Assembly (NCBI GenBank): GCA_041675085.1
Contig: JBAYUN010000001.1
Coordinates: forward strand, 170,364-234,363
Direction of reading: 5' to 3'
DNA from: Minisyncoccota bacterium
GTDB lineage: Bacteria > Patescibacteriota > Minisyncoccia > Phycocordibacterales > UBA9973
Length of the DNA stretch: 64,000 bases
The notes beneath the pieces were generated by a model that was not told the DNA's origin, made no database searches, and was given only the letters and a program-made list of their open reading frames with translations. The position numbers were made by a program, and so were the translations under genes. Positions 4,398-20,563 of this stretch are shown here, piece after piece. Every line of letters begins with the position of its first letter. Positions within the stretch are counted from its first letter, which is position 1.

Positions 4398-4970
4398 TTA
4401 TCTTCTACCTAATAAATAATCTGATAACTCACCTATCCCTATTTTTTCTTTTGAAGAATATGGAAAAACTCTATGACCGTAAAGCATATCTTCTATTTTC
4501 TTGAGCTGGTTTTTGTATTGGGAATTTTTAATTTTATCTACTTTGTTAGCTACTACGACTATCTCCCTACCTGCTTCTTCAAGAGATCGTATCATGCCGA
4601 GGTCGTCTTTGGTCGGACCTATCTCGCCATCAATAATAACCACAACGATAGGGTCATGATGTGAATCAAAAAGATACCAATACAAGAGCTTGTTGATACT
4701 TTTCCATTTTTCAAAAGAAGTCTTAGCGAAACCGTATCCAGGCAAATCAATAAAATACACAGAATTATTGATTTTAAAAATATTTAATTCTTGAGTTCTA
4801 CCTGGAGTACTACTAGTGCGAGCGAGATTTTTAACTCCAGTAAAAGAATTAATCAAGCTTGATTTACCAGCATTTGATCTCCCAATAAAAGCCACCTGAG
4901 GCACTCCGTCGTCTAGCATATCGTTGCTACCTTTGACTCCTCTTAAAAATACAGCTGATTTAATCTTCAT
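4398..4970 (-). CDS. engB: ribosome biogenesis GTPase EngB/YsxC
   Basis: G1 motif GRSNAGKSSLINSFTG, DLPGYGFAK, VVANKVDK. Confidence 0.8.
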   Translation of the reverse strand: MKIKSAVFLRGVKGSNDMLDDGVPQVAFIGRSNAGKSSLINSFTGVKNLARTSSTPGRTQELNIFKINNSVYFIDLPGYGFAKTSFEKWKSINKLLYWYLFDSHHDPIVVVIIDGEIGPTKDDLGMIRSLEEAGREIVVVANKVDKIKNSQYKNQLKKIEDMLYGHRVFPYSSKEKIGIGELSDYLLGRR

Positions 4971-4995
4971 ATAAATATCATAACAAAAAAGCGAC

Positions 4996-10042: not shown

Positions 10043-10180
10043 CTAGTTATTCTACATCAAACGACTCAAATATGCTTGGTTGCAAAATAGGTTAAATACT
10101 TCATAGTAAATCGAATTAGCTTTATTATGGAGCATGTAAAAATAAAAAAGGTAACCTATAGAATAAGTTACCTTTTAGTT

Positions 10181-10375
10181 TTAAATATTTTTTTGAAAAT
10201 GCTTATAATTGTGAATTAAGCCTTTTCTTTTTGCTTCACGAATAGACATAGGTCTACCGCTCGGATAATTATGTTGAGAAACAACCCTTGCGTCAGGGTC
10301 TCTAATAAAAGCTATAGCATCCTCGAACATTTCATAAAATGTTACTCCAAATAAAAATATAATTAATTGTTTCAT
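10181..10375 (-). CDS. small hypothetical protein (64 aa)
   Basis: ORF preceded by promoter-bearing repeat copy 1; hydrophobic N-terminus. Confidence 0.3.
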   Translation of the reverse strand: MKQLIIFLFGVTFYEMFEDAIAFIRDPDARVVSQHNYPSGRPMSIREAKRKGLIHNYKHFQKNI

Positions 10376-10460: not shown

Positions 10461-10546
10461 AACCTAACAAAATTTAACAATTAAATACAGTATCAAAGAA
10501 CTCTACTATTTCAAGTAGAATAACATATTTTAGTATTTTGTCAACT
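10461..10546. repeat. direct repeat copy 1 (promoter/5'UTR module), weaker similarity extends to about 10395
   Basis: About 92% identical over about 85 nt to 13183..13267; contains on minus strand TTGACA-16nt-TATTCT and hairpin tctact-atttca-agtaga. Confidence 0.7.
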
Positions 10547-10648
10547 ATAGAAATGTTCGAATTAGCATTTAAGTGAAATAACAAAAGGCTGAACGTTTTC
10601 ACGAACAGCCTTAATAAATTCTATACTATTTTAACTACTATATAGTTA

Positions 10649-11110
10649 TTACTTTTTACCATTACGAGGTTCGAGTAGTATGTTTGGCGCATCCACCTCG
10701 CCAGTATATACTTTTGTATTACTTTTAGGGTTTTTTGAGAAAAGTTCTAACGTAAATATAGCAGATCCACGTGGCCCTAAAGTTACCATAATTCTAAAAC
10801 CAGTCCAATTATTTTTTTTATCTACATTAATAATATCAATTAAAAAATTAAATAACTTTTCAGTCTTTGTTTGACGAATAATAACTTCGATAGCATAATA
10901 TAATGGCCCTTGACCTAAGTATTCATTGAAACAAAAATAAACATGGTCAGGATTTAATCTATCATGGTCTACAGTGATAAGGAAATCATCTTCAGAGTAA
11001 GTATCTGGAAAATTAAATTGAACCAGAAACATATACCGGGCTTTACCGAATCCTCCAAGTTGTGACGGTCTATAAGGTTCAGCAGGATAAACCTTGGATA
11101 AGTTTTGCAT
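10649..11110 (-). CDS. hypothetical protein (153 aa)
   Basis: No recognisable domain; preceded by repeated element copy A. Confidence 0.45.
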   Translation of the reverse strand: MQNLSKVYPAEPYRPSQLGGFGKARYMFLVQFNFPDTYSEDDFLITVDHDRLNPDHVYFCFNEYLGQGPLYYAIEVIIRQTKTEKLFNFLIDIINVDKKNNWTGFRIMVTLGPRGSAIFTLELFSKNPKSNTKVYTGEVDAPNILLEPRNGKK

Positions 11111-11227
11111 TTTTTATATTTTTTAATTTAAAAAATATGTCTAAGGACAATATCAAATAATCTATACTATATTTTTAGAAAAATAGCAAGTTATTTAACA
11201 GAATAATTCTCACAGAGAGAACAATCA

Positions 11228-11320
11228 AGTTCACAACATTCACAAAGCATGCCCCGCACTAAGCTTTGCTTTAGTGCTAGGGTTCACGAGCGGGCTTGAT
11301 GTTTGGATTTCAGAACTTTT
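11228..11320. repeat. repeated intergenic element, copy A
   Basis: gttcacaacattcacaaagcatgccccgcactaagctttgctttagtgctagggttcacgagcgggcttgatgtttggatttcagaactttt; near-identical to copy B. Confidence 0.7.
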
Positions 11321-11363
11321 AAAGAATCCTGAATTAGTTTTAATTAGTATTAAATCAATTAAA

Positions 11364-12020
11364 TTATTTCCTATTAATCACAATTTCTGAGACTTCCATA
11401 TTTTTAGGTAAATCCAAAATCTGTTTTAATAAAACAGCCAAATCCTCAGGTTTCATCCATTCATCTCCTTTCTCTGTATTGTCTATACCCGTTGCTTTTT
11501 CAAAAAGTTTTGTTTTAAATCCTCCTGGACAAAAACTAATTATCCTATTTGGCTTGCCTTTGAATTCTTCTTGTAAATTTTTAGTGAATCCCCTAACAGC
11601 CCATTTTGAAGCTCCGTAAACAGCTTGATCTACATAAGCTTTCAATCCTATAGTAGATGCTACATTTACAATATCAGTTTTGTCTTCAATAATTTTTTTA
11701 TATAAATTTGATATTAATAATATTTGAGATTTAACATTAGTAGACATTAAACGTTTTATTTCATCTTCAGTAATTTCTCCTAATTTCTGCACAGACAAAA
11801 CACCCGCGCAATTGATTATTGATTCAATAGGTTCATTCATTTTAAGAATCTCATCCGATGCTTTTTTAATTTCTTCTCCTTCACGCAAAGAAACACAAAT
11901 ATTAATATCAGCGTACTCTGATTCTCTTCTAGAAATATTTACAACTTTTTTACCTGCTTCTTTGTATAATTTTGCGACTTGTTTTCCAAGCCCATCACTT
12001 GCTCCTGTTATTATTATCAT
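11364..12020 (-). CDS. short-chain dehydrogenase/reductase (SDR) family oxidoreductase
   Basis: Start set to MIIITGASDGLGKQ (TGxxxGxG Rossmann motif); track ORF extends 11 codons further upstream; YGASK catalytic motif. Confidence 0.75.
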   Translation of the reverse strand: MIIITGASDGLGKQVAKLYKEAGKKVVNISRRESEYADINICVSLREGEEIKKASDEILKMNEPIESIINCAGVLSVQKLGEITEDEIKRLMSTNVKSQILLISNLYKKIIEDKTDIVNVASTIGLKAYVDQAVYGASKWAVRGFTKNLQEEFKGKPNRIISFCPGGFKTKLFEKATGIDNTEKGDEWMKPEDLAVLLKQILDLPKNMEVSEIVINRK

Positions 12021-12063
12021 ATGAGTATTATACCAAAAATACCTTAAATACAAATTTTTTAAA

Positions 12064-12183
12064 GTTCACAACATTCACAAAGCATGCCCCGCACTAAGCT
12101 TGCTTTAGTGCTAGGGTTCACGAGCGGGCTTGATGTTTTGACCCAGTCATTTGAAAGTAACTGGTTAAAATTTCAGAACTATT
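12064..12183. repeat. repeated intergenic element, copy B (with about 31-nt hairpin insertion)
   Basis: Same 76-nt core as copy A, then inserted cagtcatttgaaagtaactgg hairpin, then shared tail tttcagaact. Confidence 0.7.
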
Positions 12184-12199
12184 AATTAGCAGTGACAGC

Positions 12200-12586
12200 C
12201 TAAATACCTTTTTTTATATATAAAGACAATAAATAAATAGGACCAGAGAAAGATAAAACTGCAGACAAAAATAATGAATTAATTCCCAAAACTACTAATA
12301 ATGGGCCTAAAATCATTGTTCCATTAAATAAAATTGTATAACCACTTTTACCAACATCATGAAGCCTACGAACGCTCAAAGCAATAATAGGAGTGATAAC
12401 TAATAAAAAGTAAATTGTACTTAAAATACCACGGCCAGGTATTATTTCAATACCTATAAAACTATCAATTAAACCAAGAATAAAAGTAATGATAAAATTA
12501 AAAAGAATAAAATACCAAAATTCAGGACGACTAGCCTTTCCACTAAAAACTGCATAATTCTTTAAACCGTTAAAATAATGTTCCAT
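12200..12586 (-). CDS. DUF805-family inner membrane protein
   Basis: GKASRPEFWYFILFN... and RRLHDVGKSG motifs typical of DUF805 (YhaH-like). Confidence 0.6.
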   Translation of the reverse strand: MEHYFNGLKNYAVFSGKASRPEFWYFILFNFIITFILGLIDSFIGIEIIPGRGILSTIYFLLVITPIIALSVRRLHDVGKSGYTILFNGTMILGPLLVVLGINSLFLSAVLSFSGPIYLLSLYIKKGI

Positions 12587-12666
12587 AAAATTAAAATAAA
12601 TATTAATACTATAAATTATATATCACAGTAAAAACTAAAACAAACTAAAATATTCTTAATAAATGT

Positions 12667-12707
12667 GCGAGCTTGAGGTTTGGATTTCAGAACTTTTGAG
12701 GAATCAG
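12667..12707. repeat. partial copy C of the repeated intergenic element (3' portion only)
   Basis: gcgagcttgaggtttggatttcagaacttttgaggaatc vs gcgggcttgatgtttggatttcagaacttttaaagaatc. Confidence 0.45.
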
Positions 12708-12804
12708 TTATTATTAAAATTTGTCTGAATGATTTTAGAACTAACTAAAAATAAAAAATCACCTACTAAATTTCGGTGATTTACTCTCTAAAAGAGTTTT
12801 GGAT

Positions 12805-13116
12805 TTAACTTACAAAAGTTGCCCAAAACTGCATTTGTGTTAAAAGTTCCTTCTTTTGTATTTCTACAGAATACAACCCTGGGATCATGCCATGTTTTTT
12901 AAAAAGTGTAAGAAAAGTAATTTTAAAAGTCTCTTCGTCAATTACTTTTACCTCTTTAATAAAAATTTCCTTATTCTCTGTATCTTCAAGTGAAGAATTA
13001 CCCATATTTTCAAAATTTATAATTTCGATACTAATAGGTATATTTTTAGCAAAAGATTCAACAAAACTATCTATAGTTTTGTTAGTTTTCTTAAAATTAA
13101 TAACTAAATTATTCAT
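12805..13116 (-). CDS. hypothetical protein (103 aa)
   Basis: ORF immediately downstream of promoter-bearing repeat copy 2. Confidence 0.4.
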   Translation of the reverse strand: MNNLVINFKKTNKTIDSFVESFAKNIPISIEIINFENMGNSSLEDTENKEIFIKEVKVIDEETFKITFLTLFKKHGMIPGLYSVEIQKKELLTQMQFWATFVS

Positions 13117-13182: not shown

Positions 13183-13267
13183 GAACCAACAACATTTAAC
13201 AATTAAATACAATATAAAAGAACTCTACTATTTCAAGTAGTATAACATATTTTAGCATTTTGTCAAC
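13183..13267. repeat. direct repeat copy 2 (promoter/5'UTR module), weaker similarity extends to about 13128
   Basis: On minus strand TTGACA-16nt-TATACT; abuts 3' end of tRNA-Trp. Confidence 0.7.
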
Positions 13268-13269
13268 TG

Positions 13270-13340
13270 CGGGCGATGAGAGAATCGAACTCCCGCCAAA
13301 GGTTTTGGAGACCTTCGTTCTACCACTAAACTAATCGCCC
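13270..13340 (-). tRNA. tRNA-Trp (anticodon CCA)
   Basis: rc reads gggcgat..aaggt-cTCCAaa-acctt..gggagttcgattctctc-atcgccc. Confidence 0.85.
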
Positions 13341-19060: not shown

Positions 19061-20563
19061 CTAAATCATAGGCTCAGCCTCGGTTTCTTTTGTTTCTTTT
19101 TGATTTGAGAGATTTTGTTTTTCTTCTTCTCTTTCTTTTCTGTCTCCTTCTTCTGTACGTCCGGCACCTTTTATCGCAGCTTTTTCTTCAGCACTACGAA
19201 TGATAGTAGACTCTTCTTCTTGGATCAATCTCTGAGCGTCACCTTTTGAGATAGCGTATTTACGACGTGAAGCGGCTAGTATCTCATCTCGATACGAAGT
19301 ATGAGTAGGAGGTAGTATACGTAAAGTCTCTGCTGAGAAAGGGTCATAACTCTCTCCGTCGATAGTCATCTTGATATAGAATTCTCCTACAGCAAGGTTA
19401 ATCATATCTTTGACTCCGAAAAGAGGATCGAATTCAGGTTTTAAACGAGTCGCGTCTTCTCCTCCTACACGGAAAGAAATAATAGATCCGACGTTACCTA
19501 GGATAGATTGATAAATCTTTGGTTGGATCTGACCTACGTATTGGTGAGCCATGGTGAGGTTCAATCCGTATTTACGAGCCTCTGATAGAATATTTTCAAA
19601 AGTTTGAGTCACGACGTTTTGGAACTCGTCGACATAAATATAAAAATCTTTACGATCTTTCTCTAGGATATGGGCGCGCTCCATACCGGCTTGCTTGATC
19701 TTGGTCAAGAACATAGATCCAAAGAAAGAAGAATTCTCTTCACCGATTTTACCCTTAGAAAGATTTATCAAAATAATTTTCTGCTCGTTCATCAAAGTAC
19801 TAATATCTATTTTATTTTCTTTTTGACCGAAAATATTGCGGAGCAGTGGGTCAGACAAGAATTGCCCGAGTTTATTCACGAGAGGGATGATCGCGTCAGT
19901 ATCAAATTTCTCAGACCAATCCGCGAATTCGATAGCGAAGAATCTTTTAACCATATCGTCTTGGATGTATTCCACGACTTTCTGACGATAATTTCTATCA
20001 GTAAGCATAGATATCATTCCACGCATCGTCGCATACGGATAGTCTAGAAGCGCCAAACAAGTAAAACGAAAAACGTGCTCCAAACGAGGAGTCCAGTTGG
20101 CACCGAATTGCTTTTGGAAAACTTCAATCAAACCTTGAGTTAATTGAAATTTGAACATAGGGTCGACGTTCGCCAGAGGATTGAAAGAAGCTGGGAAATT
20201 CACGTCAGACGGATCAATAATACAAACGTCTTCAATACGTTCTTTTGGAATATAATCTAGCATTGAGTCTATCACATCTCCGTGAGGATCGATAAGACAA
20301 AGCCCGTGCCCATAAGTGATATCTTGACGCAAGAAAAGCTCGAGGAGTTTAGTCTTACCTACTCCAGACTTCCCTATGATATACAAGTGACGACGACGGT
20401 CGACTCTCTTAAAACCAAAAATGAATTTCTTCTCTTCCAGAGATGCAACGTAATTAGTCCGCCCAATAAAAGAAACCTCCTCAGGTTTTACCTTTCCATA
20501 GACTGGAAGCTCTGGTGGTGGTGGACCGTATTTAATTATTTGAACTCGATTTGGTTTCACCAT
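19061..20563 (-). CDS. TrwB/TraD/VirD4-like (type IV coupling protein family) P-loop ATPase, 500 aa
   Basis: Walker [11 protein letters not shown] followed by CLIDPHGD (compare TrwB GATGTGKS...VIVDPNGD), Walker [10 protein letters not shown], then [13 protein letters not shown] block as in T4CP C-terminal half. Confidence 0.55.

Follow-up and report, generated by a model that had tools for sequence, protein, structure and literature searches.

Three copies of a short intergenic repeat, here called A, B and C, lie between the small genes that follow a tRNA-Trp gene in a 64-kb stretch of contig JBAYUN010000001.1 from a Minisyncoccota bacterium (assembly GCA_041675085.1; the whole stretch, with a G+C content of 34%, is referred to as the window). 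The part common to all three copies is a 34–35-nt core, TTTAAAAGTTCTGAAATCCAAACATCAAGCCCGC, and the reading preferred here, at a probability of roughly 0.55, is that the cores are attachment (att)-type recombination sites that bound serially captured cassettes in a hypervariable array anchored at tRNA-Trp. Both tRNA-Trp and the core end in GCCCGC, the sequence type switches exactly after this hexamer, and the right-hand modules that come after the two are the same. In a related genome, the core is joined to a large serine recombinase (LSR) element at the same nucleotide at which the tRNA-Trp end is joined to it elsewhere. The cores are also conserved, clustered and co-oriented with the genes, and the cargo between them varies among relatives.

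Related loci were examined in views of 4–20 kb, and L-numbers are used where a locus must be told apart. Relatives were traced first via a 153-aa protein encoded in the window, which gave two homologues whose contigs led to L005. A search with a 23-nt core pattern yielded five further metagenome-assembled genomes (MAGs) of the Candidate Phyla Radiation (CPR) and one JGI metagenome contig, and L021 and L022 were added through homologues of the SDR protein of the window. The resulting census comprises 31 core copies in 11 assemblies of related Paceibacteria (CPR), and 24 homologous units from nine assemblies, each consisting of the core and the sequence upstream of it (the pre-core), were aligned.

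The repeat spans a module boundary

Copy A occupies 11227–11328, copy B 12062–12184 and the partial copy C 12667–12705, in agreement with a preliminary description of the sequence, which reported two near-identical copies and one partial copy. Positions 11227–11307 of A match 12062–12141 of B over 40 nt at 100% and 42 nt at 98%, with a 1-nt indel between the two blocks, and copy C (12667–12705) matches A at 11290–11328 with 90% identity over 39 nt. Two sub-patterns of 20–21 nt occur twice each, vs. 0.00–0.01 occurrences expected from shuffles. Neither blastn-short nor an nhmmer profile found further copies elsewhere in the window, i.e., all three lie within 1.5 kb and the remaining 62 kb are free of them. 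The internal hairpin GCACTAA/TTAGTGC that had been reported is present in both A (11247–11281) and B (12082–12115). Copy B carries an additional 29-nt insertion (12141–12169), after which the repeat continues; this insertion had been described as a perfect hairpin, and the hairpin that it forms is imperfect.

The core forms the 3′ end of the upstream gene's module and reads TTTAAAAGTTCTGAAATCCAAAC(A/C)TCAAGCCCGC in gene orientation. After the core, A and B continue with TCGTGAAC, a 35-nt GC hairpin and TTTGTGAATGTTGTGAAC, which make up a leader (T-type) that runs into the next promoter; the part common to A and B only is this promoter leader of the next gene. The sequence after the core of copy C is unrelated to it. 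Copies A and B resemble a single 80-nt element because the core is in both cases succeeded by a T-type leader, and copy C looks partial because the next module, that of a DUF805 gene, has a different leader. The 92-nt element of the preliminary description is a composite across a module boundary, in which the core belongs to the upstream module and the leader to the downstream module. The suggestion that the element is a leader is right for one half of A and B. The 153-aa, SDR and DUF805 genes indeed have a copy upstream, and the copies lie equally just downstream of the SDR, DUF805 and 103-aa genes. The limits of the element also had to be redrawn, as the conserved unit runs about 35 nt further, into the semi-conserved pre-core.

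Among the 24 aligned units, the mean pairwise identity is 88% in the core vs. 53% in the 36 upstream columns of the pre-core. The pre-core looks like an imperfect second version, in direct orientation, of the left part of the core. The same two core polymorphisms (A/C and C/T) are found within and between genomes. Within the window, only copy A has a canonical core; that of B is split by the 29-nt insertion, and that of C ends in GCTCGC, which alters the presumed crossover dinucleotide. Hence, the array in the window may be largely fossil. The insertion that splits the core of copy B is absent in L021 and present in L005 (9781–9863, 86% identity).

Three tandem 9-nt units (tcGTGAAC / tttGTGAAT / gttGTGAAC) immediately after the core make up the T-type leader and could be iterated protein-binding sites; a two-unit version is seen in L007. 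The T-type leader occurs without the GC hairpin in L005, L010 and L021, the last of which is 97% identical across the adjoining SDR region. GC-rich hairpin insertions of 23–35 nt were observed at varied leader positions and inside a core (window 11247–11281, 12082–12115 and 12141–12169; L012 around 6470; L009 around 7290), and close copies without them exist. Tiny mobile palindromes or template-switch insertions are possibilities for their origin. The pattern CCCCGCACTAAGCN{3,9}TTAGTGCTAGGG of the GC hairpin had 0 matches in GTDB species representatives, JGI metagenomes and IMG/VR, on which account the hairpin appears lineage-specific. It was also observed that a short-read Logan assembly of SRR6484325, from the same strain (L002, L004), breaks inside copies A and B. 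Core arrays are likely under-represented in MAGs because the repeats are long enough to fragment assemblies.

Junctions with tRNA-Trp and large serine recombinases

In the window, L005, L010 and L014, the array begins directly at the base that follows the 3′ end of tRNA-Trp, at the conserved Ddl-Alr-L33 locus. One core, at L012 7767, even has the tRNA-type ending CTCATCGCCCGC. The LSR family concerned has more than 230 members with open reading frames (ORFs) of about 570 aa, and its elements integrate at the GCCCGC of the tRNA-Trp end in related genomes. There, the LSR gene overlaps tRNA-Trp on the antisense strand, with a junction at which CATCGCCCGC is joined to AGTGAAGG (L016, L019, L020 and L026). 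In L016, whose LSR is 96% identical to that of L005, the tRNA-Trp end CATCGCCCGC is followed by AGTGAAGGATTTATC, and the same junction type is found at the L33-tRNA-Trp locus in L019, L020 and L026. An unintegrated-type site is represented by L017, where TTCACAGCCCGC (also given as CACAGCCCGC) precedes CATGAAGG, and the far end of the L019 element joins TTGATAGCCCGC to CTTCGC.

In L005, a core ending in CAAGTCCGC is joined to AGCGAAGGATTTATC (also given as AGCGAAGG). Here the core meets the same LSR end at the same nucleotide as the tRNA end does elsewhere, i.e., the core stands in the tRNA's place, and the entire 8.3-kb array lies between the tRNA and the LSR. The LSR gene lies on the opposite strand, and its 3′ end meets this last core, which supplies the final ten codons of the LSR ORF. 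A second arrangement is seen in L022, where a different LSR element, about 8.3 kb long, comes after the tRNA end and has a core at its far end, with further core-bounded modules beyond. An LSR gene adjoining a core (Resolvase, Recombinase and zinc ribbon domains) was found in these two loci, L005 and L022.

Overall, all four arm combinations were seen: tRNA with leader, tRNA with LSR, core with LSR and core with leader. GCCCGC is present at the tRNA–leader junction (window 13269–13274), at tRNA–LSR junctions (L016, L019, L026), in the P–LSR site of L017, in the P–B′ site of L019 (1988) and at the core ends, and the homology breaks right after it in each site type. A short motif, nGTTC, precedes GCCCGC by 17 nt in the core as well as in the L017 and L019 P arms, and the spacing in tRNA-Trp is 12 nt. 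In serine integrases, the motif of the zinc-ribbon domain is shifted 5 bp inward in attB vs. attP half-sites (PMC3783163). The match of the core to this 5-bp geometry is suggestive and rests on a motif of 4–5 nt.

The LSR ORFs (P0004–P0123; L016, L017, L019, L026) were observed to cross the crossover of their own attachment site, and their tail depends on the integration state. The integrated tail, derived from the antisense tRNA, is found in most members (AGDERIELPP...LPLN, GIEP, RIEL). A minority shares a conserved tail, ..EWNTIE..KWN.VF.., which probably corresponds to the unintegrated attP state.

Arrays and cassette behaviour in related genomes

The cores are clustered, with 2–8 per locus, and 26 of the 28 evaluable ones lie at most 251 nt downstream of a same-strand stop codon. 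No match to the core was found in IMG/VR, phage or plasmid records. The largest array, in L005, starts after the Ddl-Alr-L33-tRNA-Trp synteny and comprises nine co-oriented small genes and eight cores. Canonical terminators lie between four of these genes and their cores, and promoters of a second leader type (P-type) start right after three. Because terminators precede and promoters start after them, those cores lie in a non-transcribed spacer.

The cargo includes SDR, DUF805, NUDIX, dCMP-type deaminase, DUF2784, DUF695 and peptidase S51 proteins and many unknowns, and its order is variable. The 153-aa gene, for instance, is found after the SDR gene in the window, after a NUDIX gene in L005, and before a 137-aa gene and a peptidase S51 gene in L007. 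The SDR gene is within core arrays in the window, L012, L021 and L022, and beside rpoBC without a core in L025. Together with its 3′ flank and core, it is homologous to the window in L012 (84%) and L022 (88%); in L021 (97%), the homology ends about 25 nt past the SDR stop codon, and a peptidase S51 gene stands before the next core. The leaders vary as well, i.e., the leader of the SDR gene is T-type in three genomes and different in L012, and the P-type leader is upstream of at least five unrelated genes. The arrangement in L021 was considered as a clean DUF805-cassette indel relative to the window, and this was rejected. Only the pre-core, core and SDR gene are shared and the upstream gene is unrelated, and L021 is therefore not a simple empty site.

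A GC-rich unit of about 165 nt without an ORF, labelled D3, was noticed in several relatives, always directly after GCCCGC at either a tRNA-Trp end or a core (L005 2302–2483, 5235–5414 and 7589–7769; L010 around 4821–4986; L009 6435–6556; L015 around 11880–12068, minus strand). It terminates in 16–19 nt that copy the 3′ end of tRNA-Trp. Its start, which comes after a terminator hairpin, is GGGCGAT; this equals the 5′ acceptor strand of tRNA-Trp and pairs with the terminal ATCGCCC, closing a predicted multibranch fold with a minimum free energy of −58.3 kcal/mol (z = −5.8), one hairpin of which covaries between genomes. No Rfam family corresponds to D3, which is absent from the window, and it is a candidate for either a new structured RNA or an ORF-less cassette.

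Proposed mechanism and alternative explanations

On the minus strand, a module consists of a promoter leader, one or more cargo genes, often a terminator, the semi-conserved pre-core and the near-invariant core ending in GCCCGC, with the next module beginning at the base right after this hexamer. The core would represent an attachment-site arm of the attP/attR type, and the tRNA-Trp 3′ end its attB-type partner arm. Strand exchange would then take place within the shared GCCCGC, the position at which LSR elements integrate in relatives. Two routes may have contributed to growth and shuffling of the array. One would be site-specific recombination, either between a core and the tRNA end or between two cores, with the recombinase supplied by an LSR element; the other would be homologous recombination between the repeated cores and leaders. 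The array anatomy, the core conservation, clustering and orientation, the variable cargo and the shared junction nucleotide of tRNA and core with the LSR are directly shown; that an LSR acts on the cores, which enzyme this would be, and that recombination is still ongoing are inferred from the junctions.

Several observations weigh against the cores being recombination sites of this kind. Direct traces of recombination, such as a circular cassette or an empty site, were not observed. No recombinase gene was found in the 64-kb window by tblastn, and no LSR gene in the 8-kb views of L009, L010, L012, L014 and L015; the LSR beside the L005 array is frameshifted and split into two ORFs. The left edge of gene-level homology is often near the start codon instead of at the previous core, because leaders are swapped independently, and this independent exchange of leaders means that homologous recombination between repeated leaders or cores must contribute. 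The right-hand sequences, of at least five unrelated types, are too diverse for one canonical LSR half-site. Three more specific assignments were tried and rejected. The leaders do not qualify as LSR-side (P′) arms, with a marginal 14/30 identities for the T-type (p around 0.07–0.09) and chance levels for the P-type, type iii and D3 sequences. The core does not qualify as the P arm of the LSR family, as those of L017 and L019 share homology with one another and not with the core, except for nGTTC. Finally, the core is not recognizable as a copy of the tRNA-Trp 3′ half, since the alignment is not significant (p around 0.05) and tRNA-Cys scores equally; the stretch shared by core and tRNA-Trp is limited to CATC(AA)GCCCGCA.

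A rather unlikely alternative is that the core is a protein-binding regulatory or architectural DNA site (an operator, activator, UP-like or insulator site) beside the promoters of co-regulated accessory genes that are shuffled by homologous recombination. This would fit the placement of the core between a terminator and the next promoter, with the −35 box at P-type junctions beginning 2 nt after the core or tRNA end, and it would fit a conservation of sequence without structure. The pre-core, similar to a second imperfect direct copy, would also be in line with binding sites that are often paired, and leaders are exchanged independently of cores. However, the spacing between core and next start codon is variable (34 nt to over 300 nt), and the leaders after the core belong to several unrelated types. 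The core is linked to the 3′ flank of the upstream gene and not to the downstream promoter: the SDR gene and core are kept together in the window, L012 and L022, and the leaders differ. Such a site would also leave unexplained why a core lies at the exact LSR junction in L005 and why a core ends the LSR element in L022. The cores may alternatively be inert scars, i.e., old attR-type junctions at tRNA-Trp that hitch-hike and are now subject to RecA-dependent rearrangement only, which is judged unlikely. The presence of a single canonical core among the three in the window, where no recombinase was seen, the frameshifted LSR of L005 and the heterogeneous right-hand arms speak for this reading. 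For scars, however, neutral decay is expected, yet the core is conserved at 88% next to a pre-core at 53%, in a setting where cargo genes differ by 12–25% (DNA/protein), and the recurrence of the same A/C and C/T polymorphisms within and between genomes suggests the exchange of functional units.

The preliminary description had also offered a cis-regulatory RNA, a terminator and a MITE-like (miniature inverted-repeat transposable element) repeat. A structured cis-regulatory RNA, either as a 5′ leader or as an element of the 3′ untranslated region or terminator, was suggested by the 7-bp GC-rich hairpin in A and B and by the co-orientation of all copies with the genes, and is now very improbable. 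A search of the repeat copies against Rfam 15 gave no match at the gathering threshold, which in the window was passed by tRNAs only, and at E ≤ 10 the region 11100–12820 gave only a chance snoRNA match. Folding of the three copies, on either strand, gave z-scores of only −0.6 to −1.6 relative to shuffles, RNAalifold assigned 0 consensus pairs to the 24 units, and the hairpin is missing in orthologous leaders; the structured RNA or riboswitch is not supported on these grounds. The terminator was rejected, as a terminator scan detected no hairpin with T-run overlapping copies A–C, and in relatives canonical terminators are found upstream of the core, those of L005 among them. A selfish MITE-like or REP-like repeat spreading by transposition is hardly credible either. 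The repeat is multi-copy and intergenic, it contains nested hairpin insertions (12141–12169 and 11247–11281), and the same-strain short-read assembly breaks at its copies. Against this, a repeat search found no terminal inverted repeats around the unit, there are no target-site duplications and no transposase, and the copies are not dispersed: they are confined to 1.5 kb, with uniform orientation and a fixed position after stop codons. The MITE itself was therefore rejected, and the underlying suspicion of a repeat related to mobile DNA points in the right way. As signs of a passive repeat, the preliminary description had named a lack of conserved structure and a random orientation relative to genes; the conserved structure is indeed lacking, and the orientation is strongly non-random.

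Comparison with known systems

The array has its closest parallels in integrons, LSR attachment sites and tRNA-anchored islands. Arrays of attC sites can occur without an integrase, as in the clusters known as CALINs. The likeness to integrons and CALINs includes co-oriented, mostly single-gene cassettes with unrelated cargo, a repeat at each cassette end with the boundary at its 3′ edge, a fixed primary site at one end of the array, a cassette content that varies among relatives, and the possibility of arrays without a nearby recombinase. Integron attC arrays are recognized by at least two co-oriented sites that each follow a cassette ORF, and here three co-oriented core copies are found in the window and up to eight in L005. 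Unlike attC, the core does not fold into a single-strand hairpin and is conserved in sequence instead of structure; single-stranded DNA folds gave z-scores of −1.9 to +0.5, no better than shuffles. The attC R″/R′ boxes (RYYYAAC/GTTRRRY) were not found by inspection of both strands of copies A–C and the 24 aligned units, and three candidate heptamers (GTTCTGA, TCCAAAC and GTTGTGA) deviate from the box consensus. The cassettes differ further from those of integrons in having their own promoters and often terminators, and in using a tRNA 3′ end as the primary site. The only recombinase seen at the locus is an LSR, not an IntI tyrosine recombinase, and no member of the Phage_integrase family is among the genes called within about 10 kb of the loci viewed.

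The likeness to LSR attachment sites of the A118, Bxb1 and phiC31 type consists of the recombinase at the junction in L005 and L022, the GCCCGC shared by all site types, the four arm combinations and, more tentatively, the 5-bp offset of nGTTC in the tRNA arm relative to the core and P arms. In contrast to canonical sites, which comprise two specific half-sites and occur once per element, a pair of specific half-sites was not found here. The core is instead reiterated up to eight times per locus, next to at least five unrelated right-hand partners, and most units are without a recombinase.

Integrative elements and what remains of them can accrete in tandem at tRNA genes, as exemplified by the tycheposons of Prochlorococcus. 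The array shares with such islands a hypervariable region anchored at a tRNA gene, successive small units separated by att-like repeats, diverse cargo functions and a recombinase in some units only. It differs in that the units are mostly single genes of 0.5–1.5 kb, the array resides in a CPR bacterium whose genome measures about 0.5 Mb, and the repeat is a distinct conserved 35-nt sequence of which only about 11–13 nt are shared with the tRNA end. No description of such arrays in CPR bacteria was found in the searchable literature.

A more far-reaching and tentative proposal, held with clearly less confidence, is that the locus is a serine-recombinase analogue of the integron in CPR bacteria (Paceibacteria). 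The tRNA-Trp 3′ end would be the primary capture site and the cassettes would carry the 35-nt core as an attP-arm-like end; an LSR provided in cis or trans by elements that are integrated at the same GCCCGC, and tolerant of a variable second half-site, would insert, excise and reorder the promoter-bearing single-gene cassettes.

Local anatomy and neighbouring features

Every gene of the region is on the minus strand, in the order tRNA-Trp, leader, 103-aa gene, copy C, DUF805 gene, copy B, SDR gene, copy A and 153-aa gene. The tRNA-Trp gene (CCA; 13269–13340), identified by ARAGORN and Rfam, ends in CTCATCGCCCGC (13269–13282), which anchors the array. Abutting this end is the first copy of the P-type promoter leader (13185–13268), which has the best promoter match in the region (TTGACA-16-TATACT with TG) and serves the 103-aa cargo gene (12805–13116; no Pfam family). 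A terminator-like hairpin with T-run (12747–12779) is read from the sequence between this gene and copy C; its loop exceeds 8 nt, hence it was not listed in the terminator scan. The pre-core and core of copy C occupy 12667–12741 (core 12667–12700; nhmmer E = 1e−13), with the module boundary at 12666/12667.

Next is the DUF805 cargo gene (12200–12586; 128 aa; Pfam PF05656), followed by the split core of copy B (12124–12184; left part 12170–12184, right part 12124–12140, insertion 12141–12169; boundary 12123/12124) and its T-type leader (12064–12123), in which the GC hairpin insertion at 12082–12115 measures 34 nt. An extended −10 promoter for the SDR gene follows this leader. The SDR cargo gene (11364–12020; 218 aa; Pfam adh_short) is succeeded by the pre-core and canonical core of copy A (11290–11363; core 11290–11323, ending in GCCCGC; nhmmer E = 5e−16; boundary 11289/11290) and by its T-type leader (11229–11289), with the 35-nt GC hairpin insertion at 11247–11281. 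A second promoter and 5′ untranslated module upstream of the 153-aa gene was identified by eye at 11111–11228 (TTGCTA-17-TATAGA), and the leader sequence from 11247 to 11094 matches L005 5422–5580 and L010 7277–7399. The 153-aa cargo gene itself (10649–11110) has no Pfam family, and a core comes after its homologues in L005 and L007.

Beyond the 153-aa ORF, a terminator-like hairpin, a second P-type leader, a 64-aa ORF, a terminator and DinB follow. The hairpin with T-run (10576–10612), again a reading of the sequence, is succeeded by a pre-core-like motif, GCTAATTCGAAC (around 10547–10575), and no core is present there. The second P-type leader (10462–10546) drives the 64-aa ORF at 10181–10375 and is 96% identical to the first over 47 nt. 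The two leaders, each about 85 nt long and with −10 boxes TATACT and TATTCT, were observed to flank the entire four-gene block, and P-type leaders are multi-copy in L005, L010 and L007, upstream of unrelated genes. Integration or recombination of circular modules via leader homology would be expected to produce such a duplication. It was also noted that the last two modules (153-aa and 64-aa) both end in the pre-core-like GCTAATTCGA(AC/TT)... without a core (around 10547–10575 and around 10105–10128), and that the terminator at 10146–10176 shares homology with sequences flanking pre-cores in L005 and L010. A 500-aa protein encoded about 6 kb away from the array (19061–20563, minus strand) has faint Pfam hits of the VirD4/TraG coupling-protein type. 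A similar VirD4-like gene stands beside the LSR in L017, which also has an ArdC-like gene.

Significance

The genomes of CPR bacteria are tiny and streamlined, and little is understood of the ways in which these bacteria gain accessory genes. A 23-nt probe taken from the core, AGTTCTGAAATCCAAACNTCAAG, can be used for retrieving such arrays and their cargo from metagenomes, and an LSR that tolerates a variable half-site, if true, would be of interest to genome engineers. Should the cores be inert scars, the locus would still document a recurrent integration hot-spot of a large LSR family at tRNA-Trp. If the cores are att-type sites, the array would represent a dedicated gene-capture locus in the CPR radiation, with tRNA-anchored, promoter-bearing cassettes linked to serine recombinases, and it would be the first integron-type cassette system that is independent of a tyrosine recombinase acting on folded attC sites.

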